The translations under genes were made by a program, and so were the position numbers. Under the pieces are notes generated by a model that was not told where the DNA came from, ran no database searches, and saw only the letters and a list, made by a program, of their open reading frames with translations. Shown here one piece after another: positions 45,973 through 62,344 of a stretch of DNA of 64,000 nucleotides (positions are counted from its first letter, which is position 1; each line of letters begins with the position of its first letter). Where the stretch lies: the IMG/VR virus record IMGVR_UViG_3300037420_001954, positions 9,836 to 73,835 of that record; one strand, 5' to 3'. The stretch comes from a virus.

Positions 45973-46047
45973 GTTCGTATATCCGCCGTATCGAGAACGA
46001 GTGCCAGGCGCCAAGCACGACTCGAAGACACGGCGGATATACGAGAC
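45973..46047. promoter_or_regulatory. Divergent pair of GCA-N16-CGGATATAC promoter-like motifs
   Basis: One copy on each strand, each ending 4-5 nt before a start codon (45972 and 46048). Confidence 0.7.
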
Positions 46048-46317
46048 ATGAACGATTCGATCTTCTCCACGGTCTCGACCAACACCAACACGACCAAGCG
46101 CACCAGCAAGCCGCGCGCCCCGAAGACGCTCTTCGCGCTCGTCGATGAGTACGGTATCTGCGATACCGCCCCGAAGAAGGCGGACCTGGTTCGGTACGCG
46201 GGTGACGGCGACAAGATCGTCAAGTACACGCTCGCGCCCGTCGTCGCGAAGGCCAAGAAGGCGTCGGCGAAGACCGCGCGCAAGTCCACGCGTAAGGGTA
46301 CGAAGCAGGGCCAGTGA
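46048..46317 (+). CDS. Small basic (Lys-rich) protein
   Basis: 89 aa; AKAKKASAKTARK histone-like tail. Confidence 0.7.
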   Translation: MNDSIFSTVSTNTNTTKRTSKPRAPKTLFALVDEYGICDTAPKKADLVRYAGDGDKIVKYTLAPVVAKAKKASAKTARKSTRKGTKQGQ

Positions 46318-47897
46318 CCGCACGCGCCCCGGTCGAGGCGCCCTACCCCGTCATCAGCGCATCACAGATCACGACGTTCGATGTTGAGTCGAGCGGATGC
46401 CCAGCCAAGTGGGGGCTAAAGTCCCTACTGAAGCTAGAGACGGAACAAGGCGCCGCGGCGGCCCTCGGTGACGATATCGACACTGGACAGCTCCAGCCGT
46501 ATCTCACCGAGGGCCGCCCGATCGACTTCACTCGCAAGTCGGGCAACATCGCGCAAGCCGCGCTCAAGCACCTACCGCCCGCAGGCTCTATGGTCGCGGG
46601 GGAGAACTGTCAGCGGCACTTCGTCATGCCCACGCACTCGGCGCCGCCCGAGTGGCTCGGCATCAAGGACACGCCGCACTTCGGGTATCAGGGCTATCTA
46701 GACCTGCACCACCGCTCGTCGAGCGTGCTCCCGCTGGTCCCCGTCGAGTGGGGTGACGAGCGCTTCGTCCTCGTAGGCGACTTCAAGTCTACGGGTGCGT
46801 GGGCATGGAAGAAGACCGCCGACGACCTCAAGACCGATGTGCAGTCGACGCTCTACGCGAAGTGGGCATCGACGCACTACCGCACAGACACGGTCGATCT
46901 CGCGTGGATCTATGTCCGCACGAAGGAAGCCCCTAAGTGCGAGGTCACGTATCTGCGCACGACGAGCGATACGTTCGACGCGCGGTTCGAGCAGATCGAA
47001 CGCATCGCGAATGACATGTTCGTGTTGCGGTGGGCTGCGCCGAAACGCGTGAAGGTCGCCGGTATCGACGACCTGACGGAAGACCAGCTCAAGAAAGCAG
47101 ACCCGAGCGCGTTCGCCATCCGCAATCGGAACCTGGCGCGCATTCGTGCGAACCCAGAGCTGCACGCGTACGTGAACTCGCTGCCGAAGATGCTCACCAC
47201 GTGCGGCGCGTACGGGAACTGCCCGTTTTCTGACTCGGAAATCTGCCACCTGAACGTGAAGCAGGTGACTGAGCGAATGAAGATTCAAGCCATGGGCCGA
47301 GACGTCCACAAAGACGTCGAGTTCATGGCCAAGCAAATTGACGCCAACAAGCGCGCCCTGGCCGCGCGCATCGAAGAGATCAAGGACAACAGCATGGGTA
47401 TTCGAGATCGACTCGCCGCGAAGAAGGCGGCTGCTGAAGGCACCGCGCCGACCCCGGCCCCCGCGCCGATCAACCCGCCCGAGAGCGCGCTCCCGCCGAA
47501 GGAAGAAGCCCCGATCCCCGACCCGCCCGCGACGGTCGAAGCGGCCCCCAAGGCCAAGGTCGGACGTCCCAAGAAGGCCGCCGCGAACAAGGCCGCGCCG
47601 ACCGAGCAAGCCACCGAGTCGTCTACCACGACGGCCGAGGACACGTACGCCGCGCCGTCGGGCTCGCCCGCGACGAAGCTCTACGAGGGCCGCGCGGTCC
47701 GTGTCACGTACCCCTCCATGAAGTTCTCCGAGAACTTCAACACGTGGGGCACGCCGGAGCTGATGATCGAGTCGGCCGTGGCCGAAGGCGAGACGCCGGG
47801 CCAGGCGATCAAGCGCATCCACCTCGAGCTCAAGGCGTTGATCAACGACCTCGTGCCTGAGCACAAGGCCACGTTCGATCGACAGAAGGCGGCGTGA
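46314..47897 (+). CDS. PD-(D/E)XK (RecB/Cas4-like) nuclease with long C-terminal extension
   Basis: ISASQI...CPAKW, GYLDL, GDFKS, QSTLY, C-terminal CGAYGNCPF..C; then a Pro/Ala linker and an extra domain. Confidence 0.85.
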   Translation: MTARAPVEAPYPVISASQITTFDVESSGCPAKWGLKSLLKLETEQGAAAALGDDIDTGQLQPYLTEGRPIDFTRKSGNIAQAALKHLPPAGSMVAGENCQRHFVMPTHSAPPEWLGIKDTPHFGYQGYLDLHHRSSSVLPLVPVEWGDERFVLVGDFKSTGAWAWKKTADDLKTDVQSTLYAKWASTHYRTDTVDLAWIYVRTKEAPKCEVTYLRTTSDTFDARFEQIERIANDMFVLRWAAPKRVKVAGIDDLTEDQLKKADPSAFAIRNRNLARIRANPELHAYVNSLPKMLTTCGAYGNCPFSDSEICHLNVKQVTERMKIQAMGRDVHKDVEFMAKQIDANKRALAARIEEIKDNSMGIRDRLAAKKAAAEGTAPTPAPAPINPPESALPPKEEAPIPDPPATVEAAPKAKVGRPKKAAANKAAPTEQATESSTTTAEDTYAAPSGSPATKLYEGRAVRVTYPSMKFSENFNTWGTPELMIESAVAEGETPGQAIKRIHLELKALINDLVPEHKATFDRQKAA

Positions 47898-48151
47898 TGG
47901 CGAAAGCAACCAGGCACAAGCCCCAGCCGACACCGCCGCCCGTCGAGATCATGCTCGTGATGAACGAACTCGAAGCAACCGCGCTTCGCGTCCTGCTTGG
48001 CGGTCAGCGCTGCGGTCAAGATTCGGAAATCGGAAGAGCGTTGGGCAACGTGTGGGAGGAACTGAAGAAGGTGACTGTCACCGACAAGTATTCGAACCAC
48101 GTGTTCGATTTCGATTTCGGATTCAAGGTGAAGGACGGGGCGACGATCTGA
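47897..48151 (+). CDS. Tandem paralogue family member 1
   Basis: MAKAT...PPP.EIMLVMNELEATALRVLLGG. Confidence 0.75.
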   Translation: MAKATRHKPQPTPPPVEIMLVMNELEATALRVLLGGQRCGQDSEIGRALGNVWEELKKVTVTDKYSNHVFDFDFGFKVKDGATI

Positions 48152-48399
48152 TGGCGACCTGCACGGTCAAACGCAAAACCCCGCCGCCCGCGCCGCCACC
48201 CGAGATCGAGTCGGTGACGCTGGTGCTCTCTAAGAACGAGGCGCTTGCGCTGCAAGCGGTCCTCTACAACGTCGGCGGCGCGGCTCCGATGCGGAACTAC
48301 GTTGAAGGGATTAGCAATCTGCTCGTAGAAGTAGGCGTCGAGTACGTGAAAGGAAAACTAACCGGCGCGCTCTACTTCAAGGAGGGAGCGACACTCTAA
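48151..48399 (+). CDS. Tandem paralogue family member 2
   Basis: ...PPPEIESVTLVLSKNEALALQAVL. Confidence 0.75.
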   Translation: MATCTVKRKTPPPAPPPEIESVTLVLSKNEALALQAVLYNVGGAAPMRNYVEGISNLLVEVGVEYVKGKLTGALYFKEGATL

Positions 48400-48695
48400 T
48401 GGCTAAAGCGACCACCAAGACCCAGACCAAAACCAAGACGAAGCTCAAGATCATGCTCTCTGACAAAGAGGCGTGCGCGCTCAAGTTGCTGCTCGAAGGG
48501 GTGATCAAAGATTACGACGACGAGACTGGCGAGGCTGAATTGTCTCCGCTGCACGATGCCCTTGACAAGATTCACTTTGCGCTGATCGAGGCCAAAGTTC
48601 GCGTGGACGAGTGCTTCGATGACGGGTTCCGGTGGGACGAAACCGGACTGCTCGTCGCCAAAGCCGGCGCGACGGCGACGAGGTCCGCGTCGTGA
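48399..48695 (+). CDS. Tandem paralogue family member 3
   Basis: MAKAT...KIMLSDKEACALKLLLEG. Confidence 0.75.
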   Translation: MAKATTKTQTKTKTKLKIMLSDKEACALKLLLEGVIKDYDDETGEAELSPLHDALDKIHFALIEAKVRVDECFDDGFRWDETGLLVAKAGATATRSAS

Positions 48696-48922
48696 AGGCC
48701 ACCGTCAGCCACCCGCCGCCCGTCGTGCAGCCGCCCGCGGTCGTGACGCTCGAGATGAGCGAGCAAGAGGCCAAGCTGCTTCAGGAGCTCGTCAGCGTCT
48801 ACGTCTCATGGACGGAAAGCGCGGCCGGGAAAATGGCCCAAAACCTCTCCAACGCCCTAGAGGACGCCGGGTTCGAGCCGTTCGAGCACCATCACTCGTT
48901 TCATCTGGATCGGGCGAAGTGA
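48692..48922 (+). CDS. Tandem paralogue family member 4
   Basis: MKAT...PPAVVTLEMSEQEAKLLQELV. Confidence 0.75.
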   Translation: MKATVSHPPPVVQPPAVVTLEMSEQEAKLLQELVSVYVSWTESAAGKMAQNLSNALEDAGFEPFEHHHSFHLDRAK

Positions 48923-49188
48923 AGGCCTTCGTCGATTACGTGACCGGTGGATGGGGCGGATGGTCCGAGCCGGTCACGCTCGAGTGCTCGACCGAAGAAG
49001 CCATCGTGCTCAAGGCGCTGCTCGGCGGCGTGGTCGTTGATGCCGACGTGCCCAATCGATGGTCCCAGACCGTAGTGACGGCGCGCCAAACTATCGGCGA
49101 CGCGCTCAACCGACTCGGCGTCGAGCACGACGACCTTCGATTCGAAACTTTCTTCCGCATCAACGACGGGTCGCTCGCGGCCCTTTAG
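48919..49188 (+). CDS. Tandem paralogue family member 5
   Basis: MKA...EPVTLECSTEEAIVLKALLGG...IGDALNRLGV. Confidence 0.75.
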   Translation: MKAFVDYVTGGWGGWSEPVTLECSTEEAIVLKALLGGVVVDADVPNRWSQTVVTARQTIGDALNRLGVEHDDLRFETFFRINDGSLAAL

Positions 49189-49197
49189 GCCCGACCC

Positions 49198-49314
49198 ATG
49201 TTCGATCTCGAAAAAGAGTTCAAGTTCCTAGTTCTGGTGTGCATGTTCGCGTTCGTGGTGTGGGTGATGACCACGCCGCGCCCGCCCGGCCCTACCGTTT
49301 TGGTGGTCTCGTGA
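49198..49314 (+). CDS. Small membrane protein
   Basis: 38 aa with one TM helix. Confidence 0.45.
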   Translation: MFDLEKEFKFLVLVCMFAFVVWVMTTPRPPGPTVLVVS

Positions 49315-49550
49315 CGCACTCTGAAGAAGTACTCACGCGGCTCCACGAACAAGTAGCCGAGATGTGTCGCTACTTGGAAGTGCCGGAGGACGAGATGCAC
49401 GACACCTGGGCGCTACGCGACGCCATTGTAGCCCTGAAGCGCTCGGCTCGCCTGGCCGAGGTGGAACTGGATTTCGAATACGGCTGCGCAAGCGTTGCGG
49501 ATCTAGACGCAGCCAAAAGGCCAGACACGTTCAAGTGGGAGTCGTTCTAA
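49311..49550 (+). CDS. Hypothetical protein
   Basis: GTGA coupling; 79 aa. Confidence 0.55.
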   Translation: MTHSEEVLTRLHEQVAEMCRYLEVPEDEMHDTWALRDAIVALKRSARLAEVELDFEYGCASVADLDAAKRPDTFKWESF

Positions 49551-49759
49551 TGGCAGTATCTCACGAACGCATTCGAGAACTAGTGCTCGGCGGCACGCCT
49601 TCGGACGAAGAGATCATCGACATGGCGCACGAGCTTCGGGAACTCCGGCGTGTTTATCGGGCCGCCCGTAAACACTACGACCAAGGCTATGAGTGCAGCG
49701 AACATCTATCGGCAATTATAGAGATGGTCGAAGACTTCACCCTGCCGGTGGCGACGTGA
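49550..49759 (+). CDS. Hypothetical protein
   Basis: TAATG coupling; 69 aa. Confidence 0.6.
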   Translation: MAVSHERIRELVLGGTPSDEEIIDMAHELRELRRVYRAARKHYDQGYECSEHLSAIIEMVEDFTLPVAT

Positions 49760-51138
49760 CGGCCACGTGGGGCGAGCACGAGATCGTCCGCGGCGACGTG
49801 CTCGAGGTACTCCGCACGTTGCCGGACGACTCGTTCGATGCGGTGCTTTCTGATCCCCCCTACGGCCTGAAGTTCATGGCCAAGGCATGGGACTACGACG
49901 TGCCGAGTGTCGAGGTCTGGCGAGAGTGCCTTCGCGTGCTCAAGCCCGGCGGCCTCCTGCTCTCTTTCGGAGGCTCGCGCACGTATCACCGCATCGCTAC
50001 CGCGATCGAGGACGCTGGATTCGAACTACGCGATCAGCTTTTGTGGCTTTACGCAAAAGGTTTTCCAAAAAGTTTCAACATCTCCAAGGCGCTCGACAAG
50101 TCTGCCGGTGCCGAGCGCAAGGTCATCGGCAAGCGCAAGCTCACGGGCAATGCGGCCGTCTCGACCAAAGACAAGGGCGGCACCTACGGTGTTCAAGTCG
50201 GCTCGGCTCCAGCCAAGGAAGTCGACGTCACGGCCCCGGCCACGCCAGAAGCTATTCAGTGGCACGGGTATGGGACGGCCCTCAAGCCCGCGTTCGAGCC
50301 GATCTGTCTCGCTCGCAAACCGCTCGAGGGAACCATCATCGAGAACGTGCGCAAGTGGGGCACTGGCGGCCTCGCGATCGGTGCGTGCCGCATCGGCGAC
50401 GAAGGCGGTACCAAGAAGCGGCCAGCGAAAGAAGGTACGACCGATAGCAAATGCGCGTACTCGGACGGCCTTAACGGCGGCGGTCCGGAACCCATCGACG
50501 AAGGCCGATGGCCAGCGAACGTGCTCTTCGACGAGGGCGCGGCCGAGTATCTCGACGAGGTCGTAGGCAACCGACCGTCACGCAAGTCGGTCACTCGCAA
50601 CGGCGGCGGCAACGCAGGCGGCGCGGTGTTCGATAAGCGTGTCCCGGGCCAAGCCAAGCCAGACTCGGGGCGCAACGAAAACGGCGGCCCGTCGCGGTTC
50701 TTTTTCTGCGCCAAGGTCTCGACCAAAGAGAGGGAGTTCGGGTGTGAAGAGCTGGTTCAAAAGAGCGCTGGGGAGGCTACGGGCGGTCGCCGTGAAGGTT
50801 CTGATGGCCTCAATTCTCCTAGGGCAGGAGCCGGCCGGACGTCGGGAGCCCGAAACCATCACCCAACACTCAAGCCAATCGCTCTGAACGAGTACCTGGC
50901 GAAACTCATCAAACCACCCACGGCCGACGCCACGTTGCTAGTGCCTTATTCGGGCGCGGGTAGCGAGATGATCGGGGCGCTACGTGCGGGCTGGCCCAAT
51001 GTCCTCGGCATCGAGCGAGACCTCGACGACGAAGGCCAGGTCGCAGGCTACATCGAAATCGCCGAGGCGCGCATCGCGGCCTGGATGTGGGACGCGTACG
51101 TGTGCGCGGCCGAAGCGAAAGTGAAAGAGGCAGCGTGA
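49756..51138 (+). CDS. DNA amino-methyltransferase (N6-A/N4-C, beta-class order)
   Basis: GDVLEVL, SDPPY, RVLKPGG, HPTLKP, VPYSGAGS. Confidence 0.92.
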   Translation: MTATWGEHEIVRGDVLEVLRTLPDDSFDAVLSDPPYGLKFMAKAWDYDVPSVEVWRECLRVLKPGGLLLSFGGSRTYHRIATAIEDAGFELRDQLLWLYAKGFPKSFNISKALDKSAGAERKVIGKRKLTGNAAVSTKDKGGTYGVQVGSAPAKEVDVTAPATPEAIQWHGYGTALKPAFEPICLARKPLEGTIIENVRKWGTGGLAIGACRIGDEGGTKKRPAKEGTTDSKCAYSDGLNGGGPEPIDEGRWPANVLFDEGAAEYLDEVVGNRPSRKSVTRNGGGNAGGAVFDKRVPGQAKPDSGRNENGGPSRFFFCAKVSTKEREFGCEELVQKSAGEATGGRREGSDGLNSPRAGAGRTSGARNHHPTLKPIALNEYLAKLIKPPTADATLLVPYSGAGSEMIGALRAGWPNVLGIERDLDDEGQVAGYIEIAEARIAAWMWDAYVCAAEAKVKEAA

Positions 51139-51374
51139 GTCGAATCTACTGTGTTTTCAAGGAAGGCATCTACAACCAAGGTTTCTACGGCACGTTCGAC
51201 ACGCAAGAGAAGGCAATCGAACAGGCCGACAAAATCGCCGCGGAGGATCGAGACGACTACCACAGATATGAGGTCGTCTCTTTCGGGCTGAACGACCCCG
51301 ACAGCTTTGGTGACTGGCACTACGAGGTCAGGCGATCTGAGGCGCTGTCCAAGATTGAAAGAGGCGGCGCGTGA
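51135..51374 (+). CDS. Hypothetical protein
   Basis: GTGA coupling; 79 aa. Confidence 0.6.
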   Translation: MSRIYCVFKEGIYNQGFYGTFDTQEKAIEQADKIAAEDRDDYHRYEVVSFGLNDPDSFGDWHYEVRRSEALSKIERGGA

Positions 51375-51547
51375 AAGAGCACGAAGACCAACTCACCGTG
51401 GGCATGCTCATCGACATGCTCAAGCAGTACCCCGAAGAAGCGGTCGTGTTTTTCTCGGACAGCCTCATGCAATGTGACACGCCTGTGTGCTCGGTGTACG
51501 CCGGGTTCGAGAACGAGGTCGTTATCTCGAACGAGGCGACCAATTAG
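51371..51547 (+). CDS. Hypothetical protein
   Basis: LTVGMLIDMLKQYPEEAVV; 58 aa. Confidence 0.6.
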   Translation: MKEHEDQLTVGMLIDMLKQYPEEAVVFFSDSLMQCDTPVCSVYAGFENEVVISNEATN

Positions 51548-51549
51548 TG

Positions 51550-51885
51550 CCACAAAGACTCTTGGTCAGCGGTGCGTTCGTGGCTAGCCCACGATCGAGG
51601 ACCATCGAAACGGGAATAGAGCATCTGCAAACCCGTTAGCGCGACGAGCCCGCGTAGATGACCCAACGTCAGGGGACTAGGCTCGCGACGAGACAGCCGG
51701 AGAGACGGCGCTAATCCAACAAGACTTTCACCGCCGGCCCGTCAGGGCTCAGGGACTCGTGCCCGGTGCGGTGTGACAGCCGGAAAGACGGCGCGCTTCC
51801 ACGCGGAGCCACCTGGGGCATTGACCTGGGCCGAAAGGAGCGTTTACGGGGATGAGCTGAGATGGAAGGACCCGCCCAGTTTCGC
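51550..51885 (+). ncRNA. Candidate structured non-coding RNA upstream of tRNA cluster
   Basis: No convincing ORF; duplicated GACAGCCGGA(G/A)AGACGGCGC hairpin (51692-51711 and 51775-51794); nested stems CGAGCC/GGCTCG and CACCGC/GCGGTG. Confidence 0.5.
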
Positions 51886-51887
51886 GA

Positions 51888-51967
51888 AGGGGGCAGTCCG
51901 CGAGCCGAAAGGCCGTACAGCGCCGGGTTGAAAGCCGGAGTACGTGGTTCGATTCCACGGTCCCCGA
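51888..51967 (+). tRNA. Atypical tRNA-Phe(GAA)-like gene
   Basis: GGGGGC/GTCCCC acceptor, CGTGG-TTCGATT-CCACG T arm, TT-GAA-AG loop; irregular anticodon stem and enlarged D region. Confidence 0.45.
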
Positions 51968-52000
51968 CAAACGATAGTACGAGCGCTCGTACTTCGTCAG

Positions 52001-52065
52001 TCCTAGGTCTTCTAAAGGCAGGATGCCGCGATTCGGCGACGTCGGTTCGAATCCGGCCCTAGGCA
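52001..52065 (+). tRNA. tRNA-like gene with 5-nt anticodon loop (no canonical anticodon)
   Basis: CCTAGG/CCTAGG acceptor, TTCT/AGGA D arm, GCCG-CGATT-CGGC, GTCGG-TTCGAAT-CCGGC. Confidence 0.55.
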
Positions 52066-52069
52066 ATTA

Positions 52070-52154
52070 GCCAGTCTGACGGAATAGCAGACGTAGCGGC
52101 CTTAGAAGCCGCCGGCCGATTGTGGTCGTGCAGGTGCAAGTCCTGCGACTGGCA
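52070..52154 (+). tRNA. tRNA-Leu(TAG)
   Basis: GCCAGTC/GACTGGC acceptor, GCGGC-CTTAGAA-GCCGC, long variable arm, GCAGG-TGCAAGT-CCTGC, A73. Confidence 0.92.
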
Positions 52155-52234
52155 CGAGGGTGTTGTCCAAGGTTCGAGTCCTTGGCGTCGGGCCGAAAGT
52201 CCGGCGTGGCGGAAGGGGATACGCGCACCCGTTA
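52155..52234 (+). ncRNA. Circularly permuted tRNA-like RNA (3' half precedes 5' half)
   Basis: GGGTG-TTGTC-CAAGG TTCGAGT CCTTG-GCGTCGGGC-CGAAA-GTCCGGCGT-GGCG GAAGGGGATA CGC-G-CACCC. Confidence 0.7.
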
Positions 52235-52328
52235 GGGCGAGAGCTTGAAGGAAGCGACCCGATTCCAAGTCGGGAGAGCGTGGAAGAAAAGCCCACGTGA
52301 CGAGGACGTTCGATTCGTCCCTGGCCCG
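52235..52328 (+). tRNA. tRNA-Trp(CCA)-like gene with long variable arm
   Basis: GGGCGAG/CTGGCCC (one mismatch), GCTT/AAGC D stem, CCCGA-TTCCAAG-TCGGG, CGTGG/CCACG variable arm, GGACG-TTCGATT-CGTCC. Confidence 0.65.
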
Positions 52329-52331
52329 CGA

Positions 52332-52649
52332 ATGTTTGGACCGACCCCGTTTAGTCCCCTGAACACGCCCAATTCGTACGCCGGCTCGCTCGGCGCGCGC
52401 TCGACCAAAAAGGACCCCGAGGACGATATCGAGCACCCCGAACCGCCGCCGATCTGGAAGCAGGTCGCGACCATCGTGGCGCTTCATGGACTTATCGCGA
52501 CGGTCGAGACGCTTGGTCGTCGACTGATTCATCGGCTCTTTGACGGGCCCGAGGGGCCGAAGGCCGAGGGGTCGCAGCCCATGATCATGATGCTCGCGCC
52601 GGACGAAGAGCACAAAGACGAGAAAGAGGACAAGGAAGAAAGCGAATGA
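52332..52649 (+). CDS. Hypothetical protein
   Basis: ATG just after the tRNA; 105 aa with an acidic tail. Confidence 0.55.
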   Translation: MFGPTPFSPLNTPNSYAGSLGARSTKKDPEDDIEHPEPPPIWKQVATIVALHGLIATVETLGRRLIHRLFDGPEGPKAEGSQPMIMMLAPDEEHKDEKEDKEESE

Positions 52650-52840
52650 GCGACATGAAAATGGAAGAGATCACTGAAGTGACTATGACCTTGGTATTCG
52701 ACGTGAACCACAACACGTCAATTCGCGAACTCCAGGAGATCATGGAGACGTTCAAGAAAGCGGATCTCGACGTCGACTGCCAGTTCCGTACTGATGCGTG
52801 CTCTATCGAAGTATCTTCCGTACCGACTGAGGTGTGCTAG
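52646..52840 (+). CDS. Hypothetical acidic protein
   Basis: 64 aa, coupled. Confidence 0.6.
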   Translation: MSDMKMEEITEVTMTLVFDVNHNTSIRELQEIMETFKKADLDVDCQFRTDACSIEVSSVPTEVC

Positions 52841-54081
52841 TGACCGAGTTCCACGTCGAGGCCGTTCGCATCGGTGCAGTCTACAAGCACCCGAACGCCG
52901 ACTCGCTCTCCATCACGAACGTCTACGCGTCGCCGGACGGCTCGGGCGGGTATCCGGTCATCTTCAAGACCGGCGACTATGCGGAGGGGTCACTCGCGGT
53001 TTATGTGCCGGTCGATGCCGTCGTCCCCGAGACGCCCGAGTGGTCGTTCCTTTGGGGCAACGAGCAGAACCCGCCGCCACGTAAGCGCCGCATCAAGGCC
53101 AAGAAGCTTCGTGGCGTGTTCTCGATGGGCGTCCTGACCGCCGCGCCTGCCGGCGTGACCGAAGGCCAAGACGTCGCCGAGCTGCTCGGTATTACGCGCT
53201 ACGAGGACGAGGCCGAAGTCGCCGAGCGCAGCGCGGTGATCAAGCGCGGACGACAGCCGAAGCTCGGTTGGTGGGGCCGTCTCAAGCGGTCGGTGCTCAA
53301 TCTGCTCGGTCTTTACCGCGAGCCTGGCACGCCCCAGCACGGCCTCCCCGCGCCCAAGCTGAAGCACCTCCCAGGCTACTACGACATCGAGCCGTTCCGA
53401 AAGTACGCGGGCTCGTGGTTCGAGGACGGCGAAGAGATCGTCATCACGGAAAAGATCCACGGTCAGAACGCGTCGTTCGTGGTCGATTACGACGGCAAGT
53501 TCCACCTCAAGTCGCGTACCCGCTGGCGTGAGTTCACGCCTGACGAGCCGTCGAACGCGTGGGCGCGCGTCGCGGCGAACTACGGCCTGCCTACGAAGCT
53601 AGCGCCGTGGCCTGGGTACATCCTTTACGGCGAGGCGTACGGCAACTTCTCCGACTGCCCATACGGCGCCACGAACGAGGCCCCAGGCTTCGTCGCCTTC
53701 GACGTGTTCGACTCGAACAAGGGCCGTTGGCTGAGCTGGGACGAGTTCGTCGAGTTCTGCCGGATCACGCGCATCGACCACGTGCCGGTGCTCGCGAAGA
53801 CGACGTGGCTCGAGGCCGACGGGGCCGCGACCTACGCGCCGCTTGCGGAAGGCAAGACCACGCTCAACGACGCGGGCCACGTCCGCGAAGGATTCGTGAT
53901 CAAGCCGCGCTCGGGCCGATGCCTGCGATCGGGGCAACGCATCGTGCTCAAGATGCACGGCGAGGGATTCCTCACTCGAGACGAATCCAAGACCAAGGCG
54001 CCGAAGCCCCAAAAGGCGAAGGCGCCGCGGGTCGCGCCGCTGCCCGACCCGAACACGACCGAGTTCGCACTGGCGGCGTGA
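52834..54081 (+). CDS. ATP-dependent RNA ligase (Rnl2/DRB0094-like, N-terminal OB-fold)
   Basis: HPNADSL N-terminus; ITEKIHGQN (motif I), LYGEAYG, FVAFDV, REGFVIK, LKMHGEGFL. Confidence 0.92.
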   Translation: MLVTEFHVEAVRIGAVYKHPNADSLSITNVYASPDGSGGYPVIFKTGDYAEGSLAVYVPVDAVVPETPEWSFLWGNEQNPPPRKRRIKAKKLRGVFSMGVLTAAPAGVTEGQDVAELLGITRYEDEAEVAERSAVIKRGRQPKLGWWGRLKRSVLNLLGLYREPGTPQHGLPAPKLKHLPGYYDIEPFRKYAGSWFEDGEEIVITEKIHGQNASFVVDYDGKFHLKSRTRWREFTPDEPSNAWARVAANYGLPTKLAPWPGYILYGEAYGNFSDCPYGATNEAPGFVAFDVFDSNKGRWLSWDEFVEFCRITRIDHVPVLAKTTWLEADGAATYAPLAEGKTTLNDAGHVREGFVIKPRSGRCLRSGQRIVLKMHGEGFLTRDESKTKAPKPQKAKAPRVAPLPDPNTTEFALAA

Positions 54082-54350
54082 TGGGCCCGTACCGCGAACA
54101 AGCCAAACGAGACGAGTACAAGGACGAGGACGAGCAAGTGAAAAAGGAAATTCGTTGCCCTGCGTGGGTGTCAGGGTTTTTGGCGGTTGCGGTGGGTCTT
54201 CCTCTGATCGGGCTCGGCATCGATCTGCAAAACAAGGTCTCGTCGTACGGGCACACGCTGTGGGCAGGGATCGTTGCGGCTGCCCTGATCAGCCTCACGA
54301 TGCTGATTCGCTCGATGGATCGCTGGGCTCGCGGAGACGTGGGCTTCTGA
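54081..54350 (+). CDS. Two-TM membrane protein
   Basis: 89 aa with two hydrophobic helices. Confidence 0.65.
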   Translation: MGPYREQAKRDEYKDEDEQVKKEIRCPAWVSGFLAVAVGLPLIGLGIDLQNKVSSYGHTLWAGIVAAALISLTMLIRSMDRWARGDVGF

Positions 54351-54652: not shown

Positions 54653-56577
54653 TGGCCACGCCGTCCTTTCTCAGGGGCGGCAAGGTCACCAAGTCCGACG
54701 ACCTCGATCGCATCCTCGCGCTTCCGAAAAGGGACGTGTCCGTGGAGGCGACCGAAGCCCTCGCGGCTGAGATGACCGAGCTGCTACGTACGCCGCCAGG
54801 CACCTGTCGCGGTTGCAAGGCGTGCAAGGGCACGGGCGAGATGCACCTGCGTCCGCTTCAAGCCCTCGCGCTGCTCGAGGCTGGCGACCTCGGCGGTGGG
54901 TTCTTCCCGCTCAGAGTCGGATACGGCAAGTCGATCATCGCGCTCATCTCCTCTTACGTGCTCGACGCCAAACGCCCGTTGCTGCTCAACCCTGCTGGCC
55001 TCATCACGAAGACCGAAAAGGAACGCAGCGAGACGTATGGGCCGCACTTCATCGTTCCGAAACACGTGCGCGTGTTCTCGTACGAGAAACTAGGCAGAGC
55101 TGACTACGCGAACGAGCTCGAAGACTACCCGCCCGACCTTATAGTCGCCGACGAGGCGCACAAGCTCAAAAACCCCGACGCGGCCGTGACGAAGCGTCTG
55201 CTTCGGTACATGGAGAACCACCCCGAGACCATGTTCATCGCCCTTAGCGGCACGATCATGGACCACTCGCTCCTCGAGTTCGCGCACATTCTCCGGTGGT
55301 GTCTCAAGGGCCGCGCGCCGGTGCCGCTCAGCGACCACGAGTTGGCAGAGTGGGCCAGCGCCCTCGACGTGAAGGCGCCGCGCGGTAACGAGTACGCGCG
55401 CTACGACGTGGGCGCGCTTACGCGCTTGGCCGACGGCGTGCCCGGTATCGCCGCGAACGACGACACGACCCGAGCGCGCCTCGGGTTTCGCCATCGACTC
55501 ATCTCTACGCCAGGCATCGTGGCCACGGCCGCGGACAAGGACGACGTGAAAGCGTCGATTCGAATCCGAGGCATCGTTTACGCGCCGACGTCCGAGTCGA
55601 AGGACCCGGGCCAGGAGGACTTCCAGCGCCTTCGAGGCGAGATGAAGCTCACCGACGACTGGGAGCTCACGACGCCGATGGAGGTGTGGGCACACGCTAG
55701 GCAGGTGGCCCTCGACTTGACCTATATCTGGTCGCCGCGCCCGCCGGACGCGTGGATCGATACTCGTAAGGCGTGGACCAAGTTCATTCGCGACGCGCTC
55801 AAGGAATCGACACGTAACGGAGGCGAGCTCGACTCACCGCTGCAAGTTCGACAAGCGGTCGAGTCGGGCCACTTGCCCGGCGGCCAGAAACTACTCGAGG
55901 CGTGGCTCGCTGAACGTGACCGGCTCATGCCCGATACCGGCAAGCCGTTTACTCCCAACGTGGTCCCGGTGTGGCACGGGGACCTAGCGCTCAAGGCGTG
56001 CGCCAAGTGGGCACGTACGTCGGGCCCGGGGATTATCTGGACCGAGCACACGCTTTTCGCGCGGCGACTGGCCGAGAAGACCGGTCTCAAATACTACGGC
56101 CAAGGCGGATACTCCGACGACGGCGAGTTCATCGACGACGCCGACCCCAAGAGGTCCGTCATCGCATCCGCCGACGCGAACAAAGAAGGGCGCAACCTTC
56201 AGCACAACTGGTCGAAGAACTTGATCACGTGCCTCGAAGAGCGCCCCGGCAAGTTCGAGCAGATGATCGGCCGCACGCATCGCAGCGGCCAGCAAGCCGA
56301 CGAGGTCACGGTCGACGTGCTCATCGGGTGCATGGAGCACTTGAACGCATGGCGACGCTTGGTCCCAGCCGCGCAAGCGGTCAAGGACACGACGGGTGCC
56401 GAGCAGAAGGTGTTGCTCGCGTATCCCGACGCCGAGTGGCCGAGTGAATCAGAGATAGCGACGTGGACGGGGGCCCGCTGGGTGCCACCGGACGACGATA
56501 ACGAGCCGTTCGACGTGCTCGCCGCGCATGAAGAGGACCTAGCTAAGGCCGAAGGCCAGTGGATGGAGGCAGCGTGA
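54652..56577 (+). CDS. Superfamily 2 (SNF2-like) helicase
   Basis: LRPLQ, VGYGKS, VADEAH, ALSGT, QMIGRTHRSGQ. Confidence 0.92.
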   Translation: MATPSFLRGGKVTKSDDLDRILALPKRDVSVEATEALAAEMTELLRTPPGTCRGCKACKGTGEMHLRPLQALALLEAGDLGGGFFPLRVGYGKSIIALISSYVLDAKRPLLLNPAGLITKTEKERSETYGPHFIVPKHVRVFSYEKLGRADYANELEDYPPDLIVADEAHKLKNPDAAVTKRLLRYMENHPETMFIALSGTIMDHSLLEFAHILRWCLKGRAPVPLSDHELAEWASALDVKAPRGNEYARYDVGALTRLADGVPGIAANDDTTRARLGFRHRLISTPGIVATAADKDDVKASIRIRGIVYAPTSESKDPGQEDFQRLRGEMKLTDDWELTTPMEVWAHARQVALDLTYIWSPRPPDAWIDTRKAWTKFIRDALKESTRNGGELDSPLQVRQAVESGHLPGGQKLLEAWLAERDRLMPDTGKPFTPNVVPVWHGDLALKACAKWARTSGPGIIWTEHTLFARRLAEKTGLKYYGQGGYSDDGEFIDDADPKRSVIASADANKEGRNLQHNWSKNLITCLEERPGKFEQMIGRTHRSGQQADEVTVDVLIGCMEHLNAWRRLVPAAQAVKDTTGAEQKVLLAYPDAEWPSESEIATWTGARWVPPDDDNEPFDVLAAHEEDLAKAEGQWMEAA

Positions 56578-56858
56578 ACAACGACCAAGCGTACGAGCGT
56601 GAGATGGAAGAGCAGATTCAGGAGAACCTCAAGAAGTGGGCAGAACAACTCCGGCTCAGTGAAGAGACGATGGCCAAACAAGCCAAGCGCGACGAGACGC
56701 AAGAACGCATCGCCGACGCGCTCGAGGAGATCGCCGCGGTGCTGCACGACATCGCGTGCACGTACGAGGGGCGCGGCACGTGGGATAGCCCGCTCTTCGC
56801 TGAGATCAAAGAGATCAATGGGCTCGTCGGTGTGACCAAACACGAGGAGCGGTCGTGA
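56574..56858 (+). CDS. Hypothetical coiled-coil protein
   Basis: GTGA coupling; 94 aa. Confidence 0.6.
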   Translation: MNNDQAYEREMEEQIQENLKKWAEQLRLSEETMAKQAKRDETQERIADALEEIAAVLHDIACTYEGRGTWDSPLFAEIKEINGLVGVTKHEERS

Positions 56859-57112
56859 TGGGCGTCCCGACGCCGGCAGAGATCCAGCGCTTCGTCGACG
56901 AAGCGGCCAATGATGGTCGGGACGAAGCCGACGACGCCGTAGCCAAGGCCGCGCAGGACTCCGCGATCAAGTGCAAGGCCGCGCACGACGCGATCATGGA
57001 TCGAGTGGCCGCGCTCGCACCGAACGCCGCGAGTGGGTTCGAGTTGAAGGCGGTGGCAGAGGCGTTCGAGCACGCGCTCACGGTTTTCAAGCCGAAGGTC
57101 GTGTGGGAGTGA
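56858..57112 (+). CDS. Hypothetical protein
   Basis: 84 aa, Ala-rich. Confidence 0.6.
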   Translation: MGVPTPAEIQRFVDEAANDGRDEADDAVAKAAQDSAIKCKAAHDAIMDRVAALAPNAASGFELKAVAEAFEHALTVFKPKVVWE

Positions 57113-57501
57113 ACGCCGAGCATCCGATCGGCACGAGTAGCAGCCTGAGAATCTACGGCGAAGGCGACCGGTCCTTCTTCGCTGACGACGTCTCGGTCGG
57201 ATACGTACACAAGGGGGATGTCCGAATTGCCGGGCAGGTCGCAGGGGACGTTGTCAGGATTGCGCGGGCAATCGCGAACGCACGCTCGGACGGGTGGCGA
57301 GCGCATGCAGCTCGCCCAAGCGAAGCGGCGTGCGTTCACCCAATCCTGAACGATGCAGATGCAACGTGCGGCGCGCTTCTCGCTGCCGTTACCGCGCGCA
57401 AAGTCGAGTGCGAGCGGGAGCGCAATCACGATGGCCATCACGAGTCGGGCGGATATCGCTGGCCGCAGAGCGCGCTCTCAAAGCAAGAGCAGCGCGCCAC
57501 C

Positions 57502-57999
57502 ATGACCGAGCCGGACACGAACGATGCACCGTCCGACGAGAAACAACCAGCGATCATCCGGCACGACGGCGAGCGGATCCATTTCCTCAAGACGTGGCCT
57601 TTCCCGTTCGAGGACATGAAGGCGGGCAGGAAGCCGTTCGAATACCGGCGTTGGGACCGAGACTTTCGCGTCAACGACATCCTTGTCCTCGAAAAGTGGA
57701 GTGCGGATGGTGAGAAACGGCTCGATGGAACCGAGCACCGGCGCGTGACCTATCTCCTCCCCGGTGGCTCGTTCGGCGTCCCGAACGGCTATTGCGTGAT
57801 GGGCCTCGTCCGAGTCGACGATCCGCGGGTGGACAATCCCAACGTCGAAGACGACGAATACGTGGAGCGGTGCCTGGCGGCCTGGCTGGGACGCCGATAC
57901 CAGGGACCGAACGAGCTTCGTCTGCTTCTGCGCCAGGTCCACGACGATGGGAAGTTTAGCGCCGCGCGCACGGACTATCCAAAGGCCGGTGGCAAGTGA
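57502..57999 (+). CDS. DUF3850/ASCH-like domain protein
   Basis: IHFLKTWPFPFEDMKAGRKPFEYRRWDRDFRVNDILVLEKW. The frame is also open upstream, so the start is uncertain. Confidence 0.75.
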   Translation: MTEPDTNDAPSDEKQPAIIRHDGERIHFLKTWPFPFEDMKAGRKPFEYRRWDRDFRVNDILVLEKWSADGEKRLDGTEHRRVTYLLPGGSFGVPNGYCVMGLVRVDDPRVDNPNVEDDEYVERCLAAWLGRRYQGPNELRLLLRQVHDDGKFSAARTDYPKAGGK

Positions 58000-58373
58000 G
58001 CGACTACACACCGAGAGGGGACGGAAAGGCGGGCGGTTGGGTCCGCGTTGGCCGCTACGATCCGCCCGCTCGCCGTCGCGCACTCTGGGCTCGCATGACC
58101 GAGCACGAGGGGCCGTGCGGCGATTGGGAGCGGCCTGGCATCGAGGCCGTCGAGCTTTGCGCTGGACGTGAAGGGGATGACGCCTTTGTTCGCGTGACAC
58201 CAGAGAATCCGATATTCGAAGACCTGCTCGATTGCATCAACCGCGCGATTGGTGCAGCGGTCCTGGCCGACGAGCACGAAGAGGGCGAGGATCGAGACCG
58301 TTACTGCGACGCGTGCAATGACAACAAGGTGAATGGCGCGTGCACTGCAAGAGTATTGCCCACTAACACTTGA
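57996..58373 (+). CDS. Hypothetical protein
   Basis: GTGA coupling; 125 aa. Confidence 0.55.
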   Translation: MSDYTPRGDGKAGGWVRVGRYDPPARRRALWARMTEHEGPCGDWERPGIEAVELCAGREGDDAFVRVTPENPIFEDLLDCINRAIGAAVLADEHEEGEDRDRYCDACNDNKVNGACTARVLPTNT

Positions 58374-58431
58374 CTTATCGCACTAGAAACGAAAACCAAG
58401 TACGAAAGTACGGATATACGGAGATAGATAG

Positions 58432-58989
58432 TTGAATATTCGAGATCAGTTCAAAGGAATGAAGACGGTGAAGCTCAATGGCAAGGGCGTCTACTTGCCG
58501 GGGAACTTCAAGGGCCGCGTGAAGTTCAAGCCGGTGCAGTACAAGGAAGAGGGCTTCAAGGGCCGCTCGGTCATCTGGGAGTTCGAGCTCCTCGAGTCGA
58601 ACCTCGGTGCCGAGCACCCCGTTGGCTGCACGCGTTCGCAGGTCGTGAACCTCGACAAGTCGCCGTACGCGCACGCGGACAACACGCAGATCACGATGGC
58701 TCTGATGGGCATCGATCCGAAGACTGCGCCGTCGTCCGTGGCCAACCCTGCGCTCTATGAAGAGGTGACCGACACGTTCTGTGAGATGCTCGAGGCCGCT
58801 CGAAACTCGGCCGCGGGCGTGGAGTCGCTCACCGACGGGCTAGAGGCCATCCTCGAGACGCAGACGTACTTCACCAAGCCGACGCCGCAGGCACCGAATG
58901 GCGAGGCACGCGCACGTTACGTGTGGCACCCCACGCCCGAGGCCAAGGCCGAGCGCGACGCCGAAGTGGCGGGCAAGCAGGCCGCGTGA
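58432..58989 (+). CDS. Putative ssDNA-binding/replication accessory protein
   Basis: 185 aa, beta-rich N-terminal half, directly upstream of polA; function is a positional inference. Confidence 0.5.
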   Translation: MNIRDQFKGMKTVKLNGKGVYLPGNFKGRVKFKPVQYKEEGFKGRSVIWEFELLESNLGAEHPVGCTRSQVVNLDKSPYAHADNTQITMALMGIDPKTAPSSVANPALYEEVTDTFCEMLEAARNSAAGVESLTDGLEAILETQTYFTKPTPQAPNGEARARYVWHPTPEAKAERDAEVAGKQAA

Positions 58990-59000
58990 CCTAGGGCCGA

Positions 59001-59031
59001 ACCCCACCCGGCCGCTAACGCCGGGTGGGGT
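59001..59031 (+). terminator. Strong hairpin after the putative SSB gene
   Basis: ACCCCACCCGGC-cgctaac-GCCGGGTGGGGT, 12-bp stem, no U tract. Confidence 0.55.
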
Positions 59032-59805
59032 CGGGCGGCCTTGCAAAGTGCATCCAATTCCGTGTTGCATTTCTGCAAGTTGCGAAAAGCCTCTGGCGCC
59101 TGCTCACGCGTTCAGTCATCGTGACCGCCCCACATGACGCTGAGCCCTAGACAGCATGACGCACCGCGATACGAACTACTTGGAGGTCAAAGTATCACGA
59201 CCGTCACAAGTACAGGAGACCGCTGTATTTTTTGTCGTGGCTCCTCCGTTTCCTGTTGCGGTGCCTGGGGCGCTGTGAGACATAGGGACATCGTTCCACA
59301 CTCGCCGGCAAGCACCGCGGCACAGGATCGAGTCTCCGGATATCCCCGGTGTACAAAAGCGGAAGAGGACCCCGTTAGCAGCGAGGCCCTCTTCCTAGGA
59401 CATGAACCCCTTCTTCCCAGAGGTCCAAGCCATGATTGTCACACTAGACGAATACCGCCCGTGGGCGAGTGCCAGTCGAGATACGACTGGTACTTACACT
59501 GTCCAGGTCTTGGCGAAGATTTCGTAAAAGGGAATAAAATCCGGCGTGTAGACCGCACGTCGGTCAGGGAGGTCGTCTCGTGAATCGAGCCTGACCTACA
59601 CGTATCACTCAGCTCATGCGAACGCAACTGTGCGTGTTCATTGAGCGACGTGACGTGTCTCTGACCGACGTGCGGCACGGACGCGCCGTTTAGCCCGATT
59701 TACCCGACCGCCCTCGATGGCTGGTTGGGTGAAGGCGGGCCGGGAGGCGCGCGCGTGGATACGTCTAATTCGTGTAAATCGCATCAACCCCAATCGCACG
59801 AGGCC

Positions 59806-62160
59806 GTGCCCGTTACGGGTTGGGACACCGAGACCGATCGCTTCCGGCCCGGGCGCATGGCGCCGCCGTTGGTCGTCGTCACGTGGCATCACTCGACCGA
59901 AGCTAAGCCCGACATCGTCCATCACTCGGACCCGGCGTGCTTCCGCATGCTGCGCGAGTGGCACGAGGACGCGGCGGCAGGTAAGCGCACCCTGGTCGGG
60001 CAAAACATCGCGTTCGACGCGTGCGTGATCATCGAGCGCTACCCCGACCTGCGTGAGTGCGTCTTCGCGGCCTACGACGCGAACGGCGTCACCGACACGA
60101 TGATCCGGCAGTGGCTCATCGACAACGCGCAAGGCGGCTACCGCGGCTACATGGACGAGCGCGGTAAGTATCACCCGCGCAACTACGCGCTCGAGGACCT
60201 GTGCAAGCGACACCTCAACGTGCGTTTGCAGAAGGACGCATGGCGCACGAGCTACGGCCTCTTCCACGACTACGCGCTCGAGAAGTGGCCCGAACGCGCG
60301 GTAGAGGTCCAGCAGATGGCCGCCGTCGAGCGCGCCACCCTCGCCGAGAAGTACACGGCGCATATCTCCGTCCGTCCGGTAAAGAACCAAGACAAAGAGA
60401 CGATCAAGCGCTTGAAGGAGCGACTCGAGGCGCTCGACGAGATGCTGGCCGGTGTGCCCGAGCGCGCGACGCAGTATCCGCTCGACGACGCCACCGGCAC
60501 GCTGCGCGTGTTCGAGGCCCAGCAACCGTTCGACGTGTTGCTCAAGAATCAGTTCGCTCAGGCCCAGGCGTACTTCGCACTCAACCTCGGCTCGGTCTGG
60601 GGGCTGCGCACCGACGGCCCTGGCGTCGCGTTGCTCGAGTCGGCGATCCGCGACGACATCGAGGACATCCGCGAAGGCCTCGTCGAAGTCGGCCTCGTGC
60701 GCGAGAACGGCGTCAAGGACAAGAAGGCCGCCATCGAGCGCATGATCAAGACGTGCCGCGAGAACGGCTTGCAAGTCATCCGCACGGACGCGCACTTCGG
60801 TACCGACAAGAAGCCCCCCTGCCCGTCGCAGTGCTCGTGCGGGAAACCCGGATTCGGCAACGGCAAGTGCCGCGACATGGGCCGCAAGGCCGGGCACAAG
60901 GACATCTACGAGGACTACAACCACCCGCAGTTTTGCCGCGAGCACGTCGGCCTCGACAAGGACGCGTGTGAAGCGGTCGCCGAGTTCGATGACGTCTGGG
61001 AGGACTACTCGAACTACGTCACGTGGGGGAAAGTGCTCTCGAACGACGTGCAGATGTTGAAGGGGGCGACCGAGTACCCGGTCCACACGCGCTACGGCTT
61101 TGCCCAGACCGGCCGTACAACGAGCTCGCGTCCGCCGATACAGAACCAATCGAACCGAGAGGGCATTCGCGAGGCGTTCGTGGCTCGGCCCGGGTACGCG
61201 TTCATTCAGTGCGACTACCCGCAACTCGAGCTCTATACGCTCGCACAGTGTTGTGTGTCTTGGTTCGGGTACTCCAAGCTCGCCGAAGTTCTGCTCGCTG
61301 ACCAGGACCCGCACCTCATGGTGGCGGCGAAGATCCTGCGCATCGATTACTCGGTCGCGCACCAGGCGCTGTACGACTCAAGCCACCCGCTTCACGGCCA
61401 GGTGAAGAAGATTCGTAAGCAGGCGAAGCCGTTCAACTTCGGCAAGCCCGGCGGCATGGGCGTGAAGACACTGCTCAAGACCACGCGCAAGCAGATGGGC
61501 CGGAAGGCCTTCGCCAAGCTCGAACTAACCGAGGCCAAGGCCGTGACGCTGTCTCAGGACTGGGAGAGCACGTGGCCCGAGATGCGTCCATATTTCCGAC
61601 GCATCGAGGAGATGATCAACGACTCGCCGACGGGCCGCGTCACGGTAGAGACCCTCTTCACTGGCCGTATTCGTGGCAACTCGACGTACTGCGCCGCGCT
61701 CAACAACGGCTTCCAAGCTTTGGGGTCGGACTGCGCCAAATCCGGTGTCTGGGAGATCGCCAAGGCCTGCTACGTGCCGCGAAAAGACGGCACGTACTCG
61801 CCGCTCTACAACACGCGCGTCCCGATTTTCGTACACGACGAGAACATTGGCGAGTCGCCGTATGAGCCCGATGAGTTCGGTATCGACGAGCGCACGCACG
61901 CCGCCGCTTACGAGATCGGCTACCTGATGGTCGATGGCGCGAACAAGCACCTGCCCGATGTGCCGATCGCGCGCTCTCGCATGAAGCCGCAGATCATGCT
62001 GCGTTGGTACAAAGCAACCGAGCCGGTGTTCGCGACGCGCCCGAGTGAAGGCCCCAGCGCTAAGAAGTGGCTGGTCCCGTCGAAGGTCGTGAAGCAGCCC
62101 GACGGCGAGTACAAGTCGTCCTACGACGATAGCCGCGTGGTCTTGGCGGCCGCCGCGTAA
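59806..62160 (+). CDS. polA: Family A DNA polymerase with 3'-5' exonuclease
   Basis: WDTET, GQNIAFD, YPLDDA; GRTTSSRPPIQN, CDYPQLE, AKPFNFG, VHDE; start re-called at GTG 59806. Confidence 0.95.
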   Translation: MPVTGWDTETDRFRPGRMAPPLVVVTWHHSTEAKPDIVHHSDPACFRMLREWHEDAAAGKRTLVGQNIAFDACVIIERYPDLRECVFAAYDANGVTDTMIRQWLIDNAQGGYRGYMDERGKYHPRNYALEDLCKRHLNVRLQKDAWRTSYGLFHDYALEKWPERAVEVQQMAAVERATLAEKYTAHISVRPVKNQDKETIKRLKERLEALDEMLAGVPERATQYPLDDATGTLRVFEAQQPFDVLLKNQFAQAQAYFALNLGSVWGLRTDGPGVALLESAIRDDIEDIREGLVEVGLVRENGVKDKKAAIERMIKTCRENGLQVIRTDAHFGTDKKPPCPSQCSCGKPGFGNGKCRDMGRKAGHKDIYEDYNHPQFCREHVGLDKDACEAVAEFDDVWEDYSNYVTWGKVLSNDVQMLKGATEYPVHTRYGFAQTGRTTSSRPPIQNQSNREGIREAFVARPGYAFIQCDYPQLELYTLAQCCVSWFGYSKLAEVLLADQDPHLMVAAKILRIDYSVAHQALYDSSHPLHGQVKKIRKQAKPFNFGKPGGMGVKTLLKTTRKQMGRKAFAKLELTEAKAVTLSQDWESTWPEMRPYFRRIEEMINDSPTGRVTVETLFTGRIRGNSTYCAALNNGFQALGSDCAKSGVWEIAKACYVPRKDGTYSPLYNTRVPIFVHDENIGESPYEPDEFGIDERTHAAAYEIGYLMVDGANKHLPDVPIARSRMKPQIMLRWYKATEPVFATRPSEGPSAKKWLVPSKVVKQPDGEYKSSYDDSRVVLAAAA

Positions 62161-62311
62161 TCGTCCGAGCGCGCGATCAGAAACTCATCGCGCGGAGCAT
62201 CCCCCTAGCGGTCGAGCGCGACGTTCGATGACGCGGCGCATGAGCGATACGTGTACTTTGCATGTGTACAGAGACGCGAAACGAACAAAAAAGAATCTGT
62301 AATTAGGGCAA

Positions 62312-62344
62312 GCAGCGCCTGATCACGCGGCGGATATACGAACC
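62312..62344 (+). promoter_or_regulatory. GCA-N16-CGGATATAC motif upstream of sigma gene
   Basis: caaGCA-gcgcctgatcacgcgg-CGGATATAC-gaacc-ATG; same spacing as the two copies at 45973-46047. Confidence 0.7.

Follow-up and report, generated by a model that had tools for sequence, protein, structure and literature searches.

A phage-encoded sigma factor and a predicted class of leaderless, autoregulated promoters in an uncultured soil phage

Introduction

That phages encode sigma factors which use private promoters is textbook knowledge. Here we analyse a stretch of 64,000 nt (hereafter the window) that comprises bases 9836-73835 of the virus record IMGVR_UViG_3300037420_001954, a linear sequence of 81,895 bp and 62.5% GC from an uncultured phage that has been seen repeatedly in soil and rhizosphere metagenomes. 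In this window a bipartite motif, made of a GCA-containing hexamer and a GATATA hexamer held at a fixed distance, abuts the start codons of four genes, one of which (62345-63043) encodes a sigma factor. We propose that the motif is the promoter consensus of this sigma and that the transcripts begin at the start codon itself. The locus is a well-supported further case of a strategy already known in phages, and the comparison with the closest described systems shows in which respects it departs from them.

In phage phiEco32, early genes are read by sigma-70, and both middle and late genes by gp36 (PMC12276001). This protein is a divergent two-domain sigma that acts on the host core polymerase and uses a private -10 element, AATGTA, centred at -11.5, together with a specific contact near -35 (PMC12276001). 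Like gp36, the window sigma is predicted from its sequence to consist of two domains and to use a private -10 and an element near -35. Unlike gp36, to which it bears no detectable sequence relationship, it has a different consensus and a promoter of its own class on the sigma gene; its known targets are replication and recombination genes rather than virion genes, and their transcripts are predicted to be leaderless.

Promoters of sigma-28 carry a -35 element TCTAAAG and a -10 element GCCGATAA at -15 to -8, from which A-11 is flipped out (PMC12784957). The motif described here shares with the promoters of this group (FliA/WhiG/SigD) a -10 core of the form (C/G)GATA(A/T), a G/C-rich extension and, with +1 placed as predicted, an A at -11 and the same geometry to the start. 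Indeed, the -10 reads GCGGATAT in the window and GCCGATAT in two related contigs (L002 and L025), matching the sigma-28 element at 6-7 of 8 positions. In contrast, the -35 element is unrelated, is specific to each lineage and matches that of sigma-28 in none of them, while the window sigma itself scores only 36-42 bits against family cut-offs of 190-201, has no sigma-3 domain in its structural model and carries an aspartate in place of the arginine that contacts -12G.

Two further systems resemble this locus in part. In the Thermus phages YS40 and Lalka27a, most transcripts begin at an initiator A or G, with the -10 at a fixed short distance upstream (bioRxiv 10.64898/2026.04.20.719267). The sites in the window likewise place a -10 at a fixed short distance from the start codon, and their transcripts are predicted to be leaderless; the YS40 and Lalka27a promoters, unlike those considered here, are of the host sigma-A type (TTGACA / TAxxxT) or are read by host polymerase modified by phage factors, and not by a phage-encoded sigma. 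Autoregulated extracytoplasmic function (ECF, group 4) sigma factors, finally, have two domains, a cognate promoter before their own gene, an AAC-containing -35 and a CGT-containing -10. The window sigma resembles them in its two domains, in the promoter before its gene (5/5 loci) and in a small, conserved and coupled downstream gene (63040-63378), yet the promoter lacks the AAC and CGT signature, the downstream product has no recognisable anti-sigma domain, and sigma-2 is nearer to group 3 in sequence.

Results

Four full copies of the motif in the window

A first-pass annotation of the window had reported three copies of GCA-N13-CGG-CGGATATACGA, lying 4-5 nt ahead of GTG 45972 (minus strand), ATG 46048 and ATG 62345, and all three are present as described. 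A further full copy, the fourth, has identical spacing and lies at 43380-43406 on the minus strand, 6 nt ahead of the GTG (43373) of a RuvC-like gene. Each copy begins with a -35 hexamer (A/T)(A/G)GCA(C/G), which is followed after exactly 17 bp by GATATA and after another 5-6 nt by an ATG or GTG, and in all four the sequence CGGCG directly precedes GATATA (Table 1). All four are intergenic and point toward the downstream gene. The primase-helicase and divergent-operon sites stand back to back, with their -35 hexamers set apart by GGCGCC, and the 75-bp intergenic region that holds them forms an imperfect palindrome.

These occurrences far exceed chance: GCA-N16-CGGATATA occurs 4 times in the window against 0.01 expected, GGATATAC 5 times against 0.31, and GATATA-N6-RTG 3 times against 0.08. 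Among intergenic 8-mers, CGGATATA is the most enriched. All 6 genome-wide copies of CGGATATA lie in the intergenic 20% of the genome and none in coding sequence. A relaxed scan, which kept the GCA core but allowed spacers of 16-18 and one mismatch in GATATA, returned 13 hits against 10.5 expected and added no member to the four full sites. The fifth GGATATAC, at 41652-41659 on the plus strand, probably arose by chance. It lies 3 nt (GATATA 4 nt, against 5-6 elsewhere) ahead of the ATG of an 81-aa open reading frame (ORF) that is antisense to minus-strand genes, overlaps the first codons of the gene starting at 41670 on the minus strand, and has no -35 partner.

The absence of a Shine-Dalgarno sequence between motif and start, also reported in the first-pass annotation, is borne out, as the 5-6 nt available are too short to fit one. 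Elsewhere in the genome, Shine-Dalgarno use is moderate, with a GGAG, GAGG or AGGA core ahead of 31% of predicted genes compared with a 10% background.

Conservation of the motif among related contigs

A protein search with the primase-helicase yielded three contigs with the same divergent layout, namely L016 (52% identity), L017 (51%) and L023 (41%, from an 88.9-kb contig). Searches with the sigma and with a profile, the latter covering 1.84 billion representatives, gave orthologues of the sigma gene: L001 (63% identical by BLASTP, 67% in alignments), L002 (51% by BLASTP, 57% in alignments), L024 (profile E-value 1e-38) and L025 (6e-22). Together these seven metagenomic contigs add 12 instances of the motif, bringing the total to 16 across 8 contigs including the window. 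The added sites lie before the primase-helicase and the divergent operon (L016, L017 and L023), before the sigma gene (L001, L002, L024 and L025) and before the RuvC-like orthologue (L017 at 5614 and L023 at 12275). GATATA-N5/6-ATG/GTG is kept in 16/16 instances, the base at -1 is C in 15 of them, and the sigma gene is preceded by the promoter motif in all five sigma loci examined. Conversely, the seven related contigs contain 14 GATATA hexamers, 12 of which are promoter sites. The start codons themselves are anchored by N-terminal conservation in alignments of sigma (A1 and A4), the RuvC-like protein (A3), the primase-helicase (A5) and the divergent operon (A9); for the primase-helicase, P5 and V6 are invariant in 10 homologues (A5), and the opening codons GTG ATC TCT CG are kept in L016 and L017.

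The -35 hexamer behaves differently from GATATA, being uniform within every contig that has more than one site and different between contigs. It reads WRGCAS at the four sites of the window, GAACWG at three sites in L017, GGCCTG at three in L023 and GGGCCA at two in L016; the single-site contigs have AAGCAT (L002), GGCCTG (L025) and CGCCAG (L024). A lineage-consistent hexamer stands at exactly 17 bp in 15 of the 16 sites, the exception being L001 (17 or 19 bp). In divergent pairs the gap between the two upstream hexamers is 4, 6, 15 or 32 bp, which indicates that each hexamer is tied to its own -10 and not to its partner.

Predicted leaderless starts of this kind have been mis-annotated. The public gene calls for the L001 sigma (654-1412) and the L016 primase-helicase (1445-3661) begin upstream of the conserved start and run across the promoter, and the motif corrects both. 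In L025 two sigma-like genes stand in tandem (581-1204 and 1336-1980), with a GATATA promoter only before the second, which is the orthologue of the window sigma.

Single-protein scans of IMG/VR with the window sigma and with the primase-helicase gave no relatives. Alignment-based sigma scans of IMG/VR and metagenomes returned only distant sigmas of 28-45% identity (L003-L015), in whose AT-richer DNA copies of GATATAC carry no information. When IMG/VR was scanned for the pattern GATATA-N5-GTGATCTCTCG, the two matches, in contigs of 40% GC (L021 and L022), were due to chance. Three further relatives of the primase-helicase (L018-L020) belong to integrase-bearing elements that have neither the divergent layout nor the motif.

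The phage sigma factor

The protein encoded at 62345-63043 is a divergent two-domain relative of sigma-70, closest to FliA (sigma-28), and is predicted to bind core RNA polymerase. Its sigma-2 domain scores 30.9 bits against PF04542 (cut-off 24), residues 35-217 score 51.8 bits against TIGR02937 (cut-off 42.9), and the protein matches PHROG 351; a relative, P0042, matches the sigma-4 families PF04545 and PF08281. In an AlphaFold2 model with a mean pLDDT of 84, sigma-2 occupies residues 23-98, sigma-4 is a confidently modelled helical domain (159-225), and the linker between them (100-158) is disordered apart from one low-confidence helix, with no sigma-3 domain. The linkers of its relatives are even shorter. 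All top Foldseek matches of the model are sigma factors, and the four best relatives of solved structure are all FliA. The gene is the only sigma gene found in the record.

The wider family matches models of SigB/F/G and FliA/WhiG far below the family cut-offs; the window sigma itself scores 42.3 against 201 for NF005413 and 36.4 against 189.6 for TIGR02479. The resemblance to sigma-28 is one of function and not of family membership. In region 2.3/2.4 (residues 82-94) the family reads F-x-T-I-A-N-(G/L)-(D/R)-I-R, and an isoleucine aligns (HMMER) with the tyrosine of sigma-28 that stacks on A-11. A tblastn search of the window sigma against 50,697 phage records gave no match at E <= 1e-3, gp36 included.

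Translationally coupled to the sigma gene is a 112-aa protein with a proline-rich C-terminus (63040-63378), which is kept 3' of sigma in L002, L024 and L025. No family matches it and no anti-sigma domain is recognisable in it; it is a candidate anti-sigma or polymerase-binding partner.

Co-variation of sigma domains and promoter elements

Comparison of the sigma orthologues separates the two domains. The window and L001 have 65 of 71 sigma-2 residues in common, including the ANGDIRN motif, and both have G at -13; in region 4.1 only 6 of 24 residues are common and in region 4.2 only 10 of 32, and their -35 hexamers differ. The window and L002, in turn, share 53 of 71 residues in sigma-2, where L002 reads ANLRIRD and has C at -13, and both have the region 4.2 recognition helix QARRSRA together with a -35 of AAGCA at 17 bp. 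The remaining orthologues, L024 (ANLDIRD) and L025 (AALRIRD), also have C at -13. Such a double dissociation, of sigma-2 with -13 and of sigma-4 with -35, is what one would expect if the phage sigma reads both elements, judged on three to five sequences.

Discussion

A proposed promoter class read by the phage sigma

We favour the view that the motif is an autoregulated class of middle promoters, private to the phage, read by the phage sigma and giving rise to leaderless mRNAs, to which we assign a probability of roughly 0.6. This is in essence the proposal of the first-pass annotation, and it gains support from the conservation of the motif in 16/16 instances, from the promoter before the sigma gene in 5/5 loci and from the co-variation of domains and elements. 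That the phage sigma is the reader we infer from the latter two observations and from the pairing of a FliA-like sigma-2 with a sigma-28-like -10; the transcript start, leaderless translation and middle timing are predictions from the same sequence comparison.

In the proposed mechanism, the two-domain sigma would bind the host core RNA polymerase, its FliA-like sigma-2 reading the sigma-28-like -10 and its sigma-4 the lineage-specific -35. The promoter would comprise the -35 (A/T)(A/G)GCA(C/G), a 17-bp spacer and an extended -10, CGGCG-GATATA, and the transcript would begin 6-7 nt downstream of the -10, at the A or G that opens the start codon. If the A of the -10 is placed at -11, +1 coincides with the first base of the start codon in N6 sites and is one base off in N5 sites. 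The C at -1 in 15 of the 16 sites gives a pyrimidine(-1)/purine(+1) step, a context typical of start sites, and the predicted 5' ends of the mRNAs are unpaired in minimum-free-energy folds. Four leaderless mRNAs would result, for the primase-helicase, the divergent nuclease operon, the RuvC-like block and the sigma operon. Given that the sigma gene carries the same promoter, the factor would amplify its own synthesis.

Several observations weigh against this view or qualify it. All four promoters, that of the sigma gene included, belong to one class, so that the first sigma molecules need another source, and a phage sigma gene usually belongs to the class preceding the one under its control. 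Candidates for that source are read-through from the polymerase gene, behind which no plus-strand terminator is predicted in the 184-nt gap, weak recognition by the host, or the conserved block at 62252-62303 described below. A scan for consensus sigma-70 promoters near the four sites found nothing above shuffled sequences. In the HMMER alignment to FliA, the aromatics with which sigma-70 melts the -10 (Y430, W433 and W434) are absent from the window sigma, and where group 3 has the arginine with which sigma-28 contacts -12G, the window, L001 and L024 have aspartate and L002 and L025 arginine; the analogy with sigma-28 is loose for these reasons. The -35 spacing in L001 is ambiguous, with GCACGA at 17 bp and a window-like GAGCAC at 19 bp, and this contig has no second site. 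The co-variation comes from a small sample of three to five sequences, and the record is incomplete (CheckV completeness about 80%). The partial copy CGGATATACG at 58411-58420 on the plus strand, which the first-pass annotation had noted correctly, is a -10 only, which lacks a matching -35 and is not followed by a start codon at 5-6 nt; it represents a weak leadered promoter or a chance occurrence, and not a full member of the class. The label of putative SSB that had been given to the gene behind it (58459-58989) finds no support in Pfam, NCBIfam or PHROGs. Finally, no RNA data set was listed for a 5-kb stretch of the phage, and three root metatranscriptome runs contain small shares, as short Logan contigs with 90-99% likeness to many regions of the replication module (window 43300-63299). 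Relatives of the phage are present in these RNA libraries; RNA and carried-over DNA are indistinguishable there, and the contigs carry no information on starts or strand.

Alternative readers and alternative roles

The same leaderless bipartite promoter might instead be read by a host holoenzyme, of FliA/WhiG or SigB/F type or with the primary sigma, leaving the phage sigma to serve another, late class. The problem of the first sigma molecules would then disappear, the resemblance of the -10 to cellular group-3 consensus sequences would follow naturally, and the phage sigma gene would be expressed by the preceding class, as is usual and as gp36 of phiEco32 exemplifies. However, the -35 hexamers vary among related phages and none resembles TTGACA or the sigma-28 TCTAAAG, the T found at -7 in primary-sigma promoters is missing from GATATA, and the phage sigma-2 and sigma-4 co-vary with -13 and -35. 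Moreover, neither k-mer enrichment nor inspection by eye revealed another motif, of a late class, ahead of the structural operons, or any promoter class of the virion genes, that the phage sigma could read in its stead. We therefore regard host recognition as unlikely. Sigma appropriation is less probable again: here GATATA would be read by a host sigma and the -35 hexamer by a lineage-specific activator of the phage, in the manner of the T4 MotA box and AsiA. A lineage-specific element at -35 joined to a conserved -10 is indeed the layout of T4 middle promoters (PMC7403470), and the phage has many genes without an assigned function that could include an activator. Yet such an activator is an additional and putative component, GATATA is a poor -10 for a primary sigma, and both the constant presence of the promoter before the sigma gene and the tracking of the -35 by region 4.2 would go unexplained.

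The first-pass annotation had also offered an operator as its alternative, and a repressor or an RNA-binding protein acting on CGGATATACG beside the start codon would provide operator or translational control. The 10-mer is palindromic at 8 of 10 positions, and the 75-bp region between the primase-helicase and the divergent operon, as noted above, is an imperfect palindrome. Such a role is nevertheless highly improbable in our view, since the asymmetric form and the orientation of the motif are kept in 16/16 sites, the sigma and RuvC-like genes carry single, unpaired copies, and the gap between the paired upstream hexamers ranges over 4 to 32 bp, at odds with a dimeric operator. The fixed partner at 17 bp and the 5-6 nt to the start codon are, in contrast, the properties of a promoter.

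Significance of the phage sigma and its proposed promoters

To the systems above, the promoter class that we assign to the phage sigma adds three features. Its proposed regulon is made up of genes for replication and recombination, together with the sigma gene, and not of virion genes. The promoter directly abuts the start codon, so that transcription and translation are predicted to begin at the same nucleotide. Lastly, the sigma domains and the promoter elements change together among related phages. We hold it about an even chance that these features add up to a self-contained, modular sigma/promoter system in an uncultured family of soil phages. In such a system a two-domain sigma that has lost the canonical melting aromatics would read a sigma-28-like -10 and a lineage-specific -35 and start transcription exactly at the start codon, the whole replication regulon and the sigma gene would be leaderless and under positive autoregulation, and domains would have been naturally swapped between lineages. 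If so, the swaps of sigma-2 with -13 and of sigma-4 with -35 would be ready-made orthogonal sigma/promoter pairs. These phages are thus a natural source of candidate pairs and offer a direct route to the evolution of sigma-2 and sigma-4 specificity, and the four promoters can serve as anchors for annotating this uncultured group.

A conserved block upstream of the sigma promoter

This block, which is rich in A and some 50 nt long (Table 1), contains TACAGAGACGCGAAACGAAC, an A-run, GAATCT and CTGTAA. Across the window, L001 and L002 it is more conserved than the adjoining promoter spacer, and it is partly kept in L025. The block has no second copy in the window, and the region upstream of sigma has no Rfam match. 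It could be an UP-like element, the site of a regulator or a sigma-independent entry point. CTGTAA(C/T) is intergenic in 11/11 copies genome-wide, for example at window positions 33420, 35806 and 62297.

Genome context

A gene map of the record was built from codon usage, and the resulting blocks are listed in Table 1 together with the promoters and the genes they precede.

Table 1. Promoters, genes and gene blocks of the window (window coordinates)
Feature	Coordinates	Strand	Description	Basis
Primase-helicase promoter	45973..46006	-	-35 TGGCAC 46001-46006, 17-bp spacer, GATATA 45978-45983, 5 nt, GTG 45970-45972	
Divergent operon promoter	46013..46047	+	-35 AAGCAC 46013-46018, GATATA 46036-46041, 6 nt, ATG 46048	
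RuvC-like gene promoter	43374..43408	-	-35 AAGCAC 43403-43408, GATATA 43380-43385, 6 nt, GTG 43373	
Sigma gene promoter	62310..62344	+	-35 AAGCAG 62310-62315, GATATA 62333-62338, 6 nt, ATG 62345	
Phage sigma factor	62345..63043	+	232 aa; sigma-2, long linker, sigma-4	Pfam, TIGR02937, PHROG 351, AlphaFold2
A-rich conserved block	62252..62303	+	about -93 to -42 from ATG	alignments A2 and A7
Primase-helicase	43738..45972	-	Prim-Pol and AAA_25, 744 aa, GTG 45972	Pfam
Divergent operon gene 1	46048-46317	+	basic protein, 89 aa	
Divergent operon gene 2	46314-47897	+	PD-(D/E)XK-like protein, 527 aa	
RuvC-like gene	42825..43373	-	182 aa, N-terminal DPGADTGW motif, GTG 43373	orthologue alignment A3
Virion module		-		codon-usage gene map
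Early block	32308-40218	+		codon-usage gene map
Block ending with primase-helicase	40342-45972	-	Prim-Pol/AAA_25 primase-helicase at its end	codon-usage gene map
Long block	46048 onward	+	PD-(D/E)XK-like protein, methylase, RNA ligase, SNF2-type helicase, family A DNA polymerase, sigma-70 family protein	

The RuvC-like protein weakly matches a PHROG of Holliday junction resolvases. A nucleotide search with window positions 45000-49000 gave no match among deposited phages. Relatives of the primase-helicase are integrated in contigs of Myxococcota metagenome-assembled genomes (MAGs), at 36% identity in Labilithrix sp. (L026, within a 276-kb contig) and at 29% in a member of the Myxococcales (L027). 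These relatives give a weak hint that the host phylum may be Myxococcota; the GATATA motif was not found in either contig.

Two other repeats were seen in the record. TTGACAC occurs three times within 40 nt at window positions 32091-32130 on the minus strand, upstream of the recombinase side, and once on the opposite strand at 32215 (plus). One copy of the cluster is followed by a -10 resembling TG-n-TATCAT, and the repeats may form an early promoter of host type or a cluster of operators. The sequence CGTTCCCG is intergenic in 9 of its 11 copies, with clusters near 43600 and 30550.

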